DNA of 28,863 bases from Alistipes sp. (GTDB lineage: Bacteria; Bacteroidota; Bacteroidia; Bacteroidales; Rikenellaceae). The DNA lies in contig JAITWC010000023.1 of NCBI GenBank assembly GCA_031285485.1, positions 1 through 28,863 on the forward strand, given 5' to 3'. The notes under the pieces are model-generated. The model did no database searches, was not told the origin of the DNA, and saw only the letters and a list, made by a program, of their open reading frames with translations. Each line of letters begins with the position of its first letter. Within the stretch, counting starts at the first letter, position 1. This document shows, piece after piece, positions 17,971-21,831 of the stretch. Both the position numbers and the translations under genes were made by a program.

Positions 17971-18792
17971 TTATTTTTGGAGTTTAAGTGCGCTCGGGTA
18001 GACACCGTAGACGTGTACCTGTTCGGTGGCGCGTATCAGCCGTTCGAGGTTTGCCGAGTAGACCTCCAGCGAGGGGAACTCGATGTCGATGTGGAACATG
18101 TAGTGCCACGGTTCGGCGGGGATGGGGTGCGACTGGAGGCGGCTCATGTTCACCCCGTCGAGCACTTCGAGCGCCCTCACGAGCGAGCCCTGCCGGTGGT
18201 CGGTCTTGAAGTAGAGGCTTGCCTTGTCGGCCTTGGTGTCGATGAGCAGGTCCTGCACTTTTATTATCACGAATCGGGTGTAGTTGTTTTTGATGGTGTT
18301 GATGTCGGGCGCTACTATCTCCAGGCCGTAGAGCCTCGCGGCGCTTTCGCCGGCTATCGCGGCGACGTTCTTCTCTCCGCGTTCGGCGACGTCGCGCGCG
18401 CTCAGCGCGGTGTCTTCGCTTTCGACCAGCCGCCAGTCGGGGTGCGTGTCGAGGAAGTTGTGGCACTGCTGGAGGGCCATGGGGTGGCTTTCGACCTCGG
18501 TTATGTCGTCGAGGGTGGTTCCGGGGATCGCCATGAGGTTTTGCACGACGTGTAGGTAGACCTCGCCGGCGACCTGCACCCCGGCCTCCTGCAACAGGCC
18601 GTAGTTCGCGATGATCGTTCCGGCGATTGAGTTCTCGACGGCCATCACGCCGAATGCCGCCTCGCCGCTTTTGGTGCGTCGTGCCACTTCGCGGAACGTT
18701 GCGCACGGCAGCACCTCGATCCCCGTGCCGAAGTACTGTTCGGCGACTATCTGGTGGAAACTGCCCTGGTATCCCTGGATTGCTATTTTCAT
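17971..18792 (-). CDS. pheA: Prephenate dehydratase with ACT domain
   Basis: IAIQGYQGSFH, AVENSIAG, SHPMALQQC, NYTRF, ACT-like SLVRALE..SRLQSHP. Confidence 0.93.
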   Translation of the reverse strand: MKIAIQGYQGSFHQIVAEQYFGTGIEVLPCATFREVARRTKSGEAAFGVMAVENSIAGTIIANYGLLQEAGVQVAGEVYLHVVQNLMAIPGTTLDDITEVESHPMALQQCHNFLDTHPDWRLVESEDTALSARDVAERGEKNVAAIAGESAARLYGLEIVAPDINTIKNNYTRFVIIKVQDLLIDTKADKASLYFKTDHRQGSLVRALEVLDGVNMSRLQSHPIPAEPWHYMFHIDIEFPSLEVYSANLERLIRATEQVHVYGVYPSALKLQK

Positions 18793-18827
18793 GTTTTCGG
18801 TGTGCCGCGCGGTGTCGCGCGACCGTG

Positions 18828-18835
18828 CAAAGATA
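18828..18835 (-). promoter_or_regulatory. -7 promoter box of the pheA operon
   Basis: TATCTTTG(CA) on the minus strand, 35 nt before the ATG. Confidence 0.65.
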
Positions 18836-18888
18836 ATCCATCCGCCCGGAACGGCCTAATTTCCTTTCGGATTTTTTGCGTCGCCGCG

Positions 18889-18919
18889 GTTGCTAATCCG
18901 GAACTATTTATTAGTTTTG
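18889..18919 (+). promoter_or_regulatory. Rightward Bacteroidetes promoter immediately upstream of the first 55-bp hairpin element
   Basis: GTTG (18889-92) - N19 - TAGTTTTG (18912-19). Confidence 0.55.
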
Positions 18920-18926
18920 TGCCGGA

Positions 18927-18981
18927 CTCTCCGCCGGGGCGAGTTGGTTGTGTGGGTTTCCGACGATCCCCGGCGCGAGGG
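18927..18981 (+). repeat. 55-bp bulged-hairpin element, copy 1
   Basis: CTCTCCGCCGGGG - N28 - CCCCGGCGCGAGGG; directly repeated at 20748-20802 and 20820-20874. Confidence 0.9.
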
Positions 18982-18986
18982 TTCGA

Positions 18987-19069
18987 TAGACATCTTCGGC
19001 AAATAGTGTAATGAGGATTGATTTTCAGGCGTATAAATATCTTTAAACCGTATTTATCGAAGAAGCCTA
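18987..19069 (+). repeat. Left 83-bp MITE-like element with its own 19-bp imperfect terminal inverted repeats
   Basis: TAGACATCTTCGGCAAATA ... TATTTATCGAAGAAGCCTA. Confidence 0.8.
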
Positions 19070-19083
19070 TTAAAAAAATGCTG

Positions 19084-19091
19084 TACTTTTG
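19084..19091 (+). promoter_or_regulatory. -7 promoter box for the peptide/lipoprotein unit
   Basis: TACTTTTG(C), 14 nt inside the left element; the expected -33 region overlaps the element's right arm. Confidence 0.5.
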
Positions 19092-19274
19092 CTGAAACAA
19101 ACAAGAAAAGTGTAGATGCCTATGACGAAAAACAGAACCAAACAATGCGAAGAGCATGTTCTCCGACGTTCCGAACGGAACAAAAACGACACCACACCTT
19201 AACTTTAGGGACGTGGAAATATAACCAACAAACTAATTTAAATAGATCGTTTACCAAACTAACACAACAAAAAA

Positions 19275-19553
19275 ATGACAAAGAAAACATTTCTCAGCTT
19301 AGTCGGCGGCGCAGTCGCCATCGTAGCTGTGGCAGGCGTTGCCGTTAACAACGCAAACAGCACTACCAAAATGTCCGACCTCATGATCAAAAACCTTGAG
19401 GCACTGTCCCAGAACGAAGGAGGCAGTGGCGGAGGGTGCGGTTTTGCTGCGTATCAGTATGACGACGATTGGTATGAAGATTCCAAAAATTTCAGGCGGT
19501 GCGGAGATTGCGAATGGGTTAGTGGCACAAAACCGCAGTACACTCAGTGCTAA
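19275..19553 (+). CDS. NVEALA-family small secreted protein (92 aa) with Cys-rich C-terminus
   Basis: KK + hydrophobic N-terminus, SDLMIKNLEALSQNE (NVEALA-like motif), GGSGGG linker, 4 Cys; AT-rich leader. Confidence 0.8.
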   Translation: MTKKTFLSLVGGAVAIVAVAGVAVNNANSTTKMSDLMIKNLEALSQNEGGSGGGCGFAAYQYDDDWYEDSKNFRRCGDCEWVSGTKPQYTQC

Positions 19554-19603
19554 CGCGAAGAGAACGGGAAACCATTCTTTAATATTCTATCAGACGTTGG
19601 GAT

Positions 19604-20635
19604 ATGAAAAACTTGTCGATTTTGGCGTTACTCCTAACGGTAACGATTTTGTTATCGGTAGCATGCGGTGTAAGACGGGAAATAATTTCGCTTGACGCGA
19701 TACCCACAAGAAGTGTGGTTGGTGTACCTTTTGATACATCCCCCGAACTTCTCGCACCACGGCAAATATACGCTACATTAGGTGCAGTCGCTCTGTTTGA
19801 TAGAAACAACAAGAATGGTTTCCTGTCTTTTTTCGACAAGCAAACGGGCGTGCTTCGCCAATCGTGGGGCACAGAGGGAAGGGGGCCCGGTGAATTTATC
19901 CTTCCGCGCATCGTTGCGACACAAAAAGGTTTGACGGTAACATCTGCGGATGCCAATTACAGAAAATTGCGCTTTACTGACTCGCTTGAGATAGCGTTGC
20001 TGGACATGGGAGAATACGAGGAGAAGTTGATCGGCTCCAACTTCCTCTTCATAGTGAATGATTCCCGGGTTATCTCCGTCAAAGAGGGACCTAATCAGTT
20101 GCAAATCCTGAACCTCCAAACGGGCGAGGAGGAGCATGCAAACTACCATCCGCTGAAAATGCCGAGGAACATAGATCCGGTAGCCTTGAACAGCACCGTT
20201 TTTCAAGCCCATTACGCTTACCACGAGGATAGCGAACGGCTGTTTGTAGCATATCAGTATCATCCGATTGCATCTGTGATAGATGCTGCGGGAAACGGTT
20301 TGGTGGGGGAAACGCGGTTCGACTCATTCCGAAACGACATTAAGAAGGATGACCAGGGAGGTTGGGCTTATGTCGACCCAACGCTCGGCTACACCTTTAC
20401 GGCTGTATCTGACAACTTCTTTTATGCGCTCTATCAAGGTTCGAACAGGAAAATATTGAGTGCAAATATTCAAAAATCGGAGATACATAAATACGATATG
20501 TCGGGCCGACTAATTGAACGTATATTAGTTGACGAGCCTGTTTATCACTTCTCCGTCGAACTTGATGACAGTAAGATATACGCCATGTTCCTCGACAGTG
20601 AATTCATCGCCAAAGTTTGTATTTATGACATTTAA
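19604..20635 (+). CDS. Lipoprotein, probably TolB-like/6-bladed beta-propeller (BF3164-like)
   Basis: Lipobox LSVA-C21; GTEGRGPGEFILP motif typical of Bacteroidales 6-blade propeller lipoproteins; DNFFYALY and EIHKYDMSG blades; directly follows the NVEALA gene. Confidence 0.75.
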   Translation: MKNLSILALLLTVTILLSVACGVRREIISLDAIPTRSVVGVPFDTSPELLAPRQIYATLGAVALFDRNNKNGFLSFFDKQTGVLRQSWGTEGRGPGEFILPRIVATQKGLTVTSADANYRKLRFTDSLEIALLDMGEYEEKLIGSNFLFIVNDSRVISVKEGPNQLQILNLQTGEEEHANYHPLKMPRNIDPVALNSTVFQAHYAYHEDSERLFVAYQYHPIASVIDAAGNGLVGETRFDSFRNDIKKDDQGGWAYVDPTLGYTFTAVSDNFFYALYQGSNRKILSANIQKSEIHKYDMSGRLIERILVDEPVYHFSVELDDSKIYAMFLDSEFIAKVCIYDI

Positions 20636-20638
20636 AAC

Positions 20639-20722
20639 CATACTTCTTCGACAAATACCTCGAACAGATATTTGTGTGCCTGAAATTCAATGTCAATTCC
20701 CCGTATTTATCGAAGACGTCTA
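20639..20722 (-). repeat. Right 84-bp MITE-like element, an inverted copy of 18987-19069
   Basis: Reverse complement TAGACGTCTTCGATAAATA..ATTGAATTTCAGGCACACAAATATCT..GTATTTGTCGAAGAAG; starts 3 nt after the lipoprotein stop. Confidence 0.8.
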
Positions 20723-20747
20723 ATGTAGTTTTAAGTAAGGTTAGTGG

Positions 20748-20874
20748 CTCTCAGCCGGGGTGCGTTGTGTGTGGGTAAAGTTTGTCAGCCCCGGCGCGAG
20801 GGTCCCAAGTAGTTAGCGGCTCTCCGCCGGGGTGCGTTGGTGTGTGTAAGGTTCGGCAATCCCCGGCGCGAGGG
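20748..20874 (+). repeat. 55-bp bulged-hairpin element, copies 2 and 3 (72-bp period)
   Basis: CTCTC(A/C)GCCGGGG - N28 - CCCCGGCGCGAGGG at 20748 and 20820, each preceded by GTTAG(T/C)GG. Confidence 0.9.
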
Positions 20875-20891
20875 CCCAAAAAGGGCATTGA

Positions 20892-21068
20892 AAAGTTTCA
20901 CAACCCGGCCCGACCCCTCGGCGGGCATCTTGCAAAGTTTCAGAACCTCCGCAGACCCCTCGGGGGACACCTTGCAAAGTTTCACAACCCCCGCCGACCC
21001 CTCGGCGGACACCTTGCAAAGTTTCAGAACCTCCGCCGACCCATCGGCGGGCGTTTTGCAAAGTTTCA
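20892..21068. repeat. Tandem array D: 4 x 42 bp plus a partial unit, CCGCCGA-CCC(C/A)-TCGGCGG hairpin core, upstream of DUF6261
   Basis: AAAGTTTCA at 20892, 20934, 20976, 21018 and 21060. Confidence 0.95.
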
Positions 21069-21114
21069 GGGCTTCGCCGGCAACACATAAACCAACCCTA
21101 AAACAATTACGGTC

Positions 21115-21831
21115 ATGAAAATCGAAAACATTTACCTCTACCGCCTCCGCAACGACACCCATTTCCAGTTCATGCAGTACGTGGTGGCTCTGGTGAAGGA
21201 GATCGGCGCGGAGGCGCTCAGGGTCGAGGCCCAGATGGCGGCCCTGACGCTGCTCCACTCGCAGGAGGACGAGGCGCTCAAGAAGATCGTCCGCAGCGCC
21301 CTCACCGACGACATCGAGGATGCCGACCACGCGCGCGACGCCGTGTTCCGCGGCCTGTCGGACGCCGTCGTTTCGGCCACCAACCACTACAATCCCATCG
21401 TTGGCGAGGCCGCCCGCCGTCTCCGCATCGTGTTCGACACCTACGGCAACGTGGTGGCCCGAACGCTGGACGACGAGACGAGCGCCATCCACAACCTGCT
21501 GGTGGAGCTGACCACGAAAGGCGCACTGGACGCGGAGACGCTCGACCTCGGCGGATGGATCGGCGAGCTCGACCGGCTCAACCTGGAGGTACAGGGCCTC
21601 ATTCTGAGGCGTGCCGACGAGGAGGCCGAGCGCACGAAGCTGGTACTGCGCACCGTCCGTCTCGAAGTCGACGAGGCGTACCGTATTTTGGTCGAGCGGG
21701 TCGACGCGCTGGCGGTCGTGGATGGCGGCGCGGTGTACGACACGTTCATCTCGCGCCTCAACGAGATCGTCGTCCGCACCCGCGACATCGCCGCGCAGCA
21801 GGCCGGCCGCCGCGAGAAAAAAAAGTTATGA
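21115..21831 (+). CDS. DUF6261 family alpha-helical protein (HagB/HagC-like)
   Basis: RLRNDTHFQF, DHARDAVFRGL and YGNVVARTLDDETSAIHNLL resemble recalled Porphyromonas HagB/DUF6261 motifs (RLQNLEHYRF, DEERDRAYQAL, YGNVIRMNYDKETAAIENFL); no signal peptide. Confidence 0.75.
   Translation: MKIENIYLYRLRNDTHFQFMQYVVALVKEIGAEALRVEAQMAALTLLHSQEDEALKKIVRSALTDDIEDADHARDAVFRGLSDAVVSATNHYNPIVGEAARRLRIVFDTYGNVVARTLDDETSAIHNLLVELTTKGALDAETLDLGGWIGELDRLNLEVQGLILRRADEEAERTKLVLRTVRLEVDEAYRILVERVDALAVVDGGAVYDTFISRLNEIVVRTRDIAAQQAGRREKKKL

Follow-up and report, generated by a model that had tools for sequence, protein, structure and literature searches.

An inverted pair of IS5-family miniature elements brackets a peptide and propeller lipoprotein cassette in a termite-gut Alistipes genome and probably forms a transposase-less composite transposon

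We analyzed a 28,863-nucleotide stretch of Alistipes sp. DNA (contig JAITWC010000023.1 of assembly GCA_031285485.1; hereafter the window, meaning this whole stretch) and found that one segment of it, positions 18987-20722 (1736 bp), is bounded by two diverged, inverted copies of one 83-bp subfamily of MITEs (miniature inverted-repeat transposable elements). Between them lie a putative promoter, a gene for an NVEALA-family peptide and a gene for a propeller lipoprotein. The segment is probably a non-autonomous, transposase-less composite transposon that was inserted as a unit. The identity of its ends, the insertion sequence (IS) family to which they belong, its architecture and its position inside the leader of a neighboring operon are all shown by the analysis. 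The window is contig C191 of the 193 contigs of a metagenome-assembled genome (MAG; G000) that is 65% complete, with an assembly size of 1.52 Mb and a genome-wide guanine-plus-cytosine (GC) content of 60.0%. The single source run is a termite-gut metagenome, which was examined at the level of contigs. The two elements at the edges of the segment, the left copy L and the right copy R, are as follows.

18987-19069, plus strand: L, a MITE of 83 bp; its outer terminal inverted repeat (TIR; 18987-19005) has the canonical tip TAGAC, and the tip of its inner TIR (19051-19069) is mutated to TAGGC.
20639-20722, minus strand: R, a MITE of 84 bp, inverted relative to L; the tip of its inner TIR (20639-20657) is mutated to CATAC, and its outer TIR (20704-20722) is canonical, with the tip TAGAC.

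L and R aligned with a score of 77 in inverted orientation and 45 in direct orientation, while 500 base-shuffles gave 14.2 +/- 4.3 with a maximum of 29, and an independent repeat search returned a 49-nt inverted pair (19017-19065 and 20643-20691) with 78% identity. Each copy contains its own dyad, TCTTCGnnAAATA-N45/46-TATTTnnCGAAGA, with TIRs of about 19 nt, and the outer 19-mers of the two agree at 16 of 19 positions. Neither copy, at 83 and 84 bp, holds an open reading frame (ORF). All of this bears out an earlier note on this DNA, which had described inverted copies, each with a dyad of its own, and TAGAC at both outer ends. Beside the TIR, the block ATTGAWTTTCAGGC is an interior feature common to the L/R subfamily. 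The two interiors scored 13 against each other (shuffles, -6.3 +/- 3.3), with next-best scores of 9 and -2 among other MITEs, making L and R mutual nearest relatives at a divergence of about 25%. That note had further taken the block-wise conservation as a sign of selected protein-binding sites. For the terminal blocks we agree, in that they are TIRs of the kind a transposase would recognize; the interior blocks fit common descent, and descent of the two copies from one MITE subfamily explains them well enough.

Apart from L and R, no member of this subfamily was found in the assembly. When the 1.52-Mb assembly was scanned with the 19-mer at up to 3 mismatches, three of the four ends were recovered together with one site on contig C111, with about 0.3 chance matches expected. 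Searches with the whole 83-bp element against its own MAG and 60 relatives gave end-matches only, and a 19-mer scan of 300 genomes of the family found matches only in this MAG, in the same-genus genome G014 (a decayed remnant by dapA) and at one site with 1 mismatch.

At 44.6%, the GC content of the composite is below that of the kilobases on its two sides (60.9% and 62.3%), and the 1.57-kb segment between the MITEs is about 45% GC; the AT-richer interior had been correctly described before. Misassembly is unlikely, because Logan contigs of the source run, which were built independently, span both junctions (18644-19398 and 19372-20877) at a depth of 15-19, the same as that of the flanks.

The C111 site is a fifth end of the family (G000:C111, 101-119) and lies 50 nt upstream of the ORF start MFYKDIENLSAARFKRLTGVKREV; the ORF runs off the contig. 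A paralogous N-terminal fragment on contig C158 matches HTH_Tnp_4 with 49 bits, and as a query it retrieved 62 loci, mostly in Bacteroidota MAGs and many of them with termite-gut isolate names. Among these loci were complete elements of about 900-945 bp with the same TIR at both ends. The TIR of the family is TAGACnTCTTCGGnAAATA, and the ends of complete elements read TAGACyTCTTCGGnAAATA. The autonomous element carries orfA (136 aa; HTH_Tnp_4, 54.6 bits) and, in the -1 frame, orfB (142 aa; DDE_Tnp_4, 75.9 bits; DDE_Tnp_1, 63.3 bits); both match NCBIfam IS5_4, and their combined length is about 278 aa. In the MAG itself the left IS end is C111:1-119, at a contig edge, and the right IS end is C109:4209-4355, at a contig end, where the final 41 aa of orfB are also encoded (88% identity). 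With both IS ends at contig breaks, the assembly has the usual signature of an unassembled multi-copy IS.

We also scanned contigs from metagenomes for pairs of such TIRs with a spacing of 45-75 nt and obtained 37 MITEs of 71-95 bp, which carry the same TIRs, fall into several subfamilies and come in many cases from termite-gut data sets. Since the IS ends and these 37 MITEs share the TIRs of L and R, L and R are MITEs of this IS family. As judged from sequence, their ends are IS5-family ends and not those of IS630/Tc1-mariner elements, to which the earlier note had attributed them; we rejected that attribution because the autonomous elements with these ends encode HTH_Tnp_4 and DDE_Tnp_4 proteins that match IS5_4. 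Its view of the 83-bp units as ends of mobile elements holds, in that their TIRs match the ~900-bp IS5-family elements, and the autonomous IS with the same ends that it had thought worth seeking turned up in the 62 loci and as the C111 and C109 ends in the MAG.

IS remnants lie at two further sites. C158:1-520 (L017) is a nest of IS fragments in which the start of a DUF4096-like IS5-type transposase runs into the HTH_Tnp_4 orfA fragment, and the latter is itself interrupted by a third element starting MRRISLTEDERQ. At L011 (G014:C28:~180-420), in the same-genus genome, a single canonical TIR by the 3' end of the dapA-like gene is joined to a remnant of about 230 bp with a -7 box and a piece like the N-terminus of another IS5-type transposase (LEAIFYVLKSG).

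We compared the four tips of the pair with 28 ends of the family, located by the internal motif alone within loci that the protein search had retrieved. TAGAC was read at 20 of these ends, TAGGC and CATAC at none, so the outer tips of L and R are canonical and the inner tips are mutated at conserved positions. Two copies that are each other's nearest relatives thus bracket genes, with their outer tips intact. The composite holds only 0.25-0.3% of the TA/WTAW sites of the genome, and two unlinked insertions here would be improbable with about 0.3% of the candidate TA targets.

Under the mechanism that we propose, the MITEs would descend from an IS of the IS5 family, about 900 bp long, whose two ORFs are joined by a -1 frameshift, and a transposase supplied in trans by full-length IS copies would recognize the two intact outer TIRs. 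The whole unit would have moved into the leader of the DUF6261-araA operon, where it landed in an AT-rich spacer that separates GC-rich hairpin repeats, and decay of both inner tips would block the exit of a single MITE and keep the unit together. It would have arrived en bloc, with TA as its target, and may still be able to move.

The features of the interrupted leader are listed here; -7 boxes, here and below, are of the Bacteroidetes type and were found by a scan for TAnnTTTG, and promoter function is assigned from the motif alone.

18912-18919, plus strand: -7 box TAGTTTTG, the leader start and likely the promoter of the DUF6261-araA operon.
18919-18986, plus strand: GC-rich hairpin unit 1, directly abutting L; direct-repeat families D2/D3, with BLAST matches to units 2-3 and to contig C184.
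20723-20739, no strand: AT-rich leader spacer, which resumes right after the outer end of R; a similar spacer lies between the hairpin units of C184.
20740-20880, plus strand: GC-rich hairpin units 2 and 3, from repeat search and BLAST.
20888-21097, plus strand: 42-nt tandem array directly upstream of DUF6261, a part of the interrupted leader and not of the mobile element.
21115-21831, plus strand: DUF6261 gene (PF19775, 123.5 bits), the first gene of the operon, with araA next.

Contig C184 carries a paralogous leader that is contiguous: a -7 box, a hairpin unit, a short AT spacer, a second unit, a 42-nt array and the start (~75 nt) of a DUF6261 gene. The same -7 box is kept there, as TAGCTTTG. 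In the window this architecture is broken by exactly MITE, cargo and MITE, with no extra DNA beyond the outer ends, and the cassette and the interrupted operon have the same orientation. The insertion would place 1.7 kb between the -7 box at 18912 and the DUF6261-araA operon. Where the window has three hairpin units, C184 has two, the first of which resembles a hybrid between units 1 and 2 of the window. The homologous stretch, C184:1-470, turns unrelated after about 75 nt of DUF6261, and the hairpin units were found only in C184 and the window. Over roughly 100 nt of the left flank the Logan contig and the MAG disagree at six positions (18884, 18885, 18893, 18934, 18969 and 18985), and they are nearly identical across the rest of the locus; this points to variation between strains, or to gene conversion within hairpin unit 1.

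To the left of the leader lies a divergent prephenate dehydratase gene (17971-18792) with a -7 box of its own. Six same-genus genomes (L098-L103) have neither the cassette nor DUF6261, and in them prephenate dehydratase is divergently paired with nadC. In this MAG, in whose assembly nadC was not found, prephenate dehydratase is paired with the DUF6261-araA region, which indicates a lineage-specific rearrangement at the prephenate dehydratase locus.

TA is present at every end of the family, with flanks of the form A-W | TA...TA | W-T. Joined together, the outer flanks of the pair restore (G/A)A-TA-AT, which agrees well with the target consensus A-W-TA-W-T. No duplication longer than TA was seen in 8 complete IS copies, and no filled/empty pairs were found among 36 metagenome MITE loci. 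TA may be a duplication of 2 bp, or the repeat itself may begin with it. The ends of IS5-family elements in P. gingivalis start with GAGAC (PMC4596501), and this keeps the second option alive. The target duplication suggested earlier is therefore one of two candidate readings of TA, every family end carrying TA and no true empty site having been found.

The cargo of the composite is 1569 bp long and contains the following features.

19084-19091, plus strand: -7 box TACTTTTG, 15 nt past L; by its motif only, the likely promoter of the cassette.
19275-19553, plus strand: NVEALA-family peptide of 92 aa (PF14055, 34.2 bits; cut-off, 27 bits).
19604-20635, plus strand: lipoprotein of 343 aa, a TolB-like 6-blade propeller with the lipobox LSVAC (PF15869, 40.5 bits; cut-off, 29.2 bits).

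The peptide has an N-terminal hydrophobic segment, the sequence NLEALSQNEGG and a C-terminal part with 4 Cys. PF14055 and PF15869 are adjacent and above gathering score here, and the same pairing occurs at L122, the locus of the nearest homologue of the propeller (71% identical), where a homologous peptide precedes the propeller. Nucleotide homology to L122 covers 19380-20635 and ends at the stop codon. In line with the earlier description, L abuts the internal promoter, and R begins 3 nt after the last stop, the TAA of the lipoprotein gene at 20633-20635. As RNA, R folds directly after this stop into a hairpin of -19 kcal/mol (z = -3.8), which is predicted and could act as a terminator or stabilizer. 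An Rfam search of 18700-21200 returned no match. L may carry a decayed copy of the IS promoter region facing the cargo, to judge from a weak match. The literature that we searched held no mention of NVEALA.

Several results weigh against a composite that arrived as a unit. The 65%-complete MAG yielded no solo copy of the L/R subfamily, no second composite was found in another context, and a PF13359 search of the MAG recovered no intact transposase or complete DDE gene. There is no orthologous empty site in the six nearest same-genus genomes, which lack the region and have prephenate dehydratase beside nadC, and C184 is not a clean empty site, because recombination between units could have made it. 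The TA ends are not distinguishable from the first two repeat bases. L and R are about 25% apart, so the structure is old or was built from copies that had already diverged. The cassette at L122 lies in a GC-rich context with no MITE, and its limits, from ~190 nt upstream to the stop codon, are like those here; three other NVEALA islands in this MAG are likewise low-GC, in GC-rich contexts and free of MITEs. These MITE-free cassettes mean that another route of arrival exists. Family TIRs were absent from the 3 loci of the same MAG, from the 3 nearest propeller-homologue contigs that were looked up and from 22 loci in 6 genomes of the order. A TIR match with 2 mismatches at L186 lies inside a 391-aa ORF and was taken as chance. 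The earlier note's transposase-less composite thus keeps its fit to the architecture, while the empty site, second copy and solo copy that would go with it were not found, and its broader suggestion of a vehicle that delivers NVEALA/propeller modules generally is not supported in the data searched, with about 30 other NVEALA loci lacking these flanks.

Some of these results lend weight to a different history, in which a cassette came by another NVEALA route, the MITEs inserted afterwards and independently, or one of them by a local hop, into the few AT-rich, TA-containing slivers at its edges that would accept them, and the pair never moved together. The other NVEALA islands of the MAG and L122 are MITE-free and low-GC with similar limits, and the IS family prefers AT-rich A-W-TA-W-T targets, of which the 60% GC genome offers just 781 (AWTAWT). 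Gene interiors would be selected against as targets, a divergence of 25% between L and R fits two events, and the flanks of each single MITE fit the target consensus reasonably well. We nevertheless consider this history unlikely, if still worth keeping in view. The sole two copies of the subfamily lie 1.57 kb apart, in a segment with about 0.3% of the candidate targets, and there is no cassette DNA other than the MITEs beyond the outer ends on either side. Intact outer tips and decayed inner tips are moreover the pattern expected of a unit moving on its outer ends.

A further alternative is that homologous recombination between MITE copies swapped the cassette in, the MITEs having served as portable homology arms with no transposase acting on the composite. 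Arms of 83 bp do stand on either side of the cargo, and termite-gut metagenomes commonly contain MITEs that have these TIRs. The arms are, however, both inverted and short, their similarity is only about 75%, and the searches found no further copy of the subfamily as a partner, which leaves this explanation improbable.

An invertible segment acted on by a recombinase in trans had been put forward in the earlier note. As a phase-variation switch, the 1.7-kb segment would be flipped by a site-specific recombinase, and the inverted repeats do bracket a promoter and genes. The repeats are, however, complete MITEs with ends that match an IS with a DDE transposase, and at 78% identity with indels they would be poor substrates for site-specific inversion. 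The 28.9-kb contig encodes no tyrosine or serine recombinase (PF00589, PF00239), and the contigs of the source run show one orientation and no inverted joints, although contigs can hide rare variants. We regard a switch as very improbable. That the repeats are instead duplicated regulator-binding sites of the cassette and not mobile DNA, as their dyad-symmetric blocks and the position of one near the promoter might suggest, is hardly credible, since the same 19-nt ends bound ~900-bp transposase elements and dozens of MITEs in unrelated contexts, and none occur at the ~30 other NVEALA loci examined.

The MAG is rich in tandem arrays like the one upstream of DUF6261. TRF applied to the whole MAG reported 140 arrays of at least 2.8 copies (median, 4.8), 64 of them with a period of exactly 41 nt and 76 with one of exactly 42 nt; periods of 36-40 or 43-48 nt did not occur. 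Together they make up 28.6 kb of the 1.52 Mb, at a density of roughly one per 11 kb. The unit sequence varies between arrays, and no k-mers are common to their flanks; an origin of the arrays as MITE-borne sequence was rejected on the latter ground. No 41/42-nt array was found by TRF in 92 kb from 16 same-genus genomes. MITE464/PgRS elements with 41-nt tandem repeats have been reported in P. gingivalis (PMC4596501), and these repeats may be a lead on the arrays of the MAG.

DUF6261 is itself a multicopy gene in this 65%-complete MAG, with 18 paralogues at 44-61% identity, at window 21115-21831 and 17 other sites (e.g. C48:391, C97:3871, C12:4732, C39:12934 and C170:7015), and no match in 17 other genomes of the same genus. 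Thirteen of the 18 have a 41/42-nt array no more than 150 nt upstream of the start, and several of the remainder lie close to a contig edge or right at it. Of the four NVEALA loci in the MAG, three directly adjoin a DUF6261 paralogue (C39:12934-14566, C180:12502-13944 and window 19275-21831), and two of these three agree in order and strand (peptide, propeller, array, DUF6261). Identity between the propellers is just 22-31%, over short stretches, so these loci are not recent duplications, and the possibility that the cassette is a recent paralogue of the other NVEALA loci of the MAG was rejected.

It would be a larger claim that the pair is a still-active IS5-MITE shuttle that moves bacteriocin-like NVEALA/propeller modules among termite-gut genomes, and we consider this doubtful. 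If true, it would have no predecessor among the MITE composites with gene cargo described in Bacteroidota, and it would rewire transcription of the operon by placing its own promoter and a terminator-like hairpin between the host promoter and DUF6261-araA. Nearly all known MITE pairs that carry genes come from antibiotic-resistance contexts in Proteobacteria; here the same mechanism, if confirmed, would spread niche or competition genes (a secreted Cys-rich peptide and a partner lipoprotein) in gut symbionts. The composite would also suggest a route into a high-GC genome for at least one NVEALA island of low GC. The analysis also defines a widespread IS/MITE family, with the TIR TAGACnTCTTCGGnAAATA and A-W-TA-W-T as its flanks, and annotation pipelines for Bacteroidota MAGs could flag it.

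Pairs of MITEs that carry genes are already known, and what is new here is the MITE/IS family, the host and the cargo. In Acinetobacter, class 1 integrons are flanked by 439-bp MITEs, and a similar MITE-flanked structure of Enterobacter cloacae was shown to transpose (reviewed in PMC9771954); mosaic transposons are built from Tn3-derived TIMEs (PMC4133298). As in those composites, two transposase-less miniatures bracket passengers in the window, and a transposase acting in trans on the outer ends would be needed. The pair described here differs from them in that its MITEs are 83-bp IS5 derivatives in an uncultured termite-gut Bacteroidales, its cargo is a peptide and a propeller protein and not resistance, a single copy is known, and its transposition is putative.

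Among IS elements, ISCaa2 and ISCaa3 of Amoebophilus asiaticus (ISL2 group) are 914-916 bp long and encode 275 aa in two ORFs with a -1 frameshift (PMC3196728). The autonomous elements described above are similar at 900-945 bp, with orfA, a -1-frame orfB and about 278 aa, and have 19-nt TIRs. The window itself contains just miniature derivatives. IS630/Tc1-mariner elements resemble the present family in having TA at both ends and short TIRs, but differ in transposase family, and in the present family TA is a candidate duplication. Tourist MITEs of the eukaryotic PIF/Harbinger transposons are analogous miniatures, and the DDE_Tnp_4 domain of the IS described here is a Harbinger-type nuclease domain. 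Within the Bacteroidales, the IS5-related MITEs of P. gingivalis (BrickBuilt, MITE464/PgRS) likewise have TIRs that match full-length IS5-family elements (PMC4596501), and their tips are similar (GAGAC, compared with TAGAC here). They differ from L and R in the rest of the TIR and in the interior, and they are reported as dispersed solo copies, whereas L and R form a pair that carries genes.

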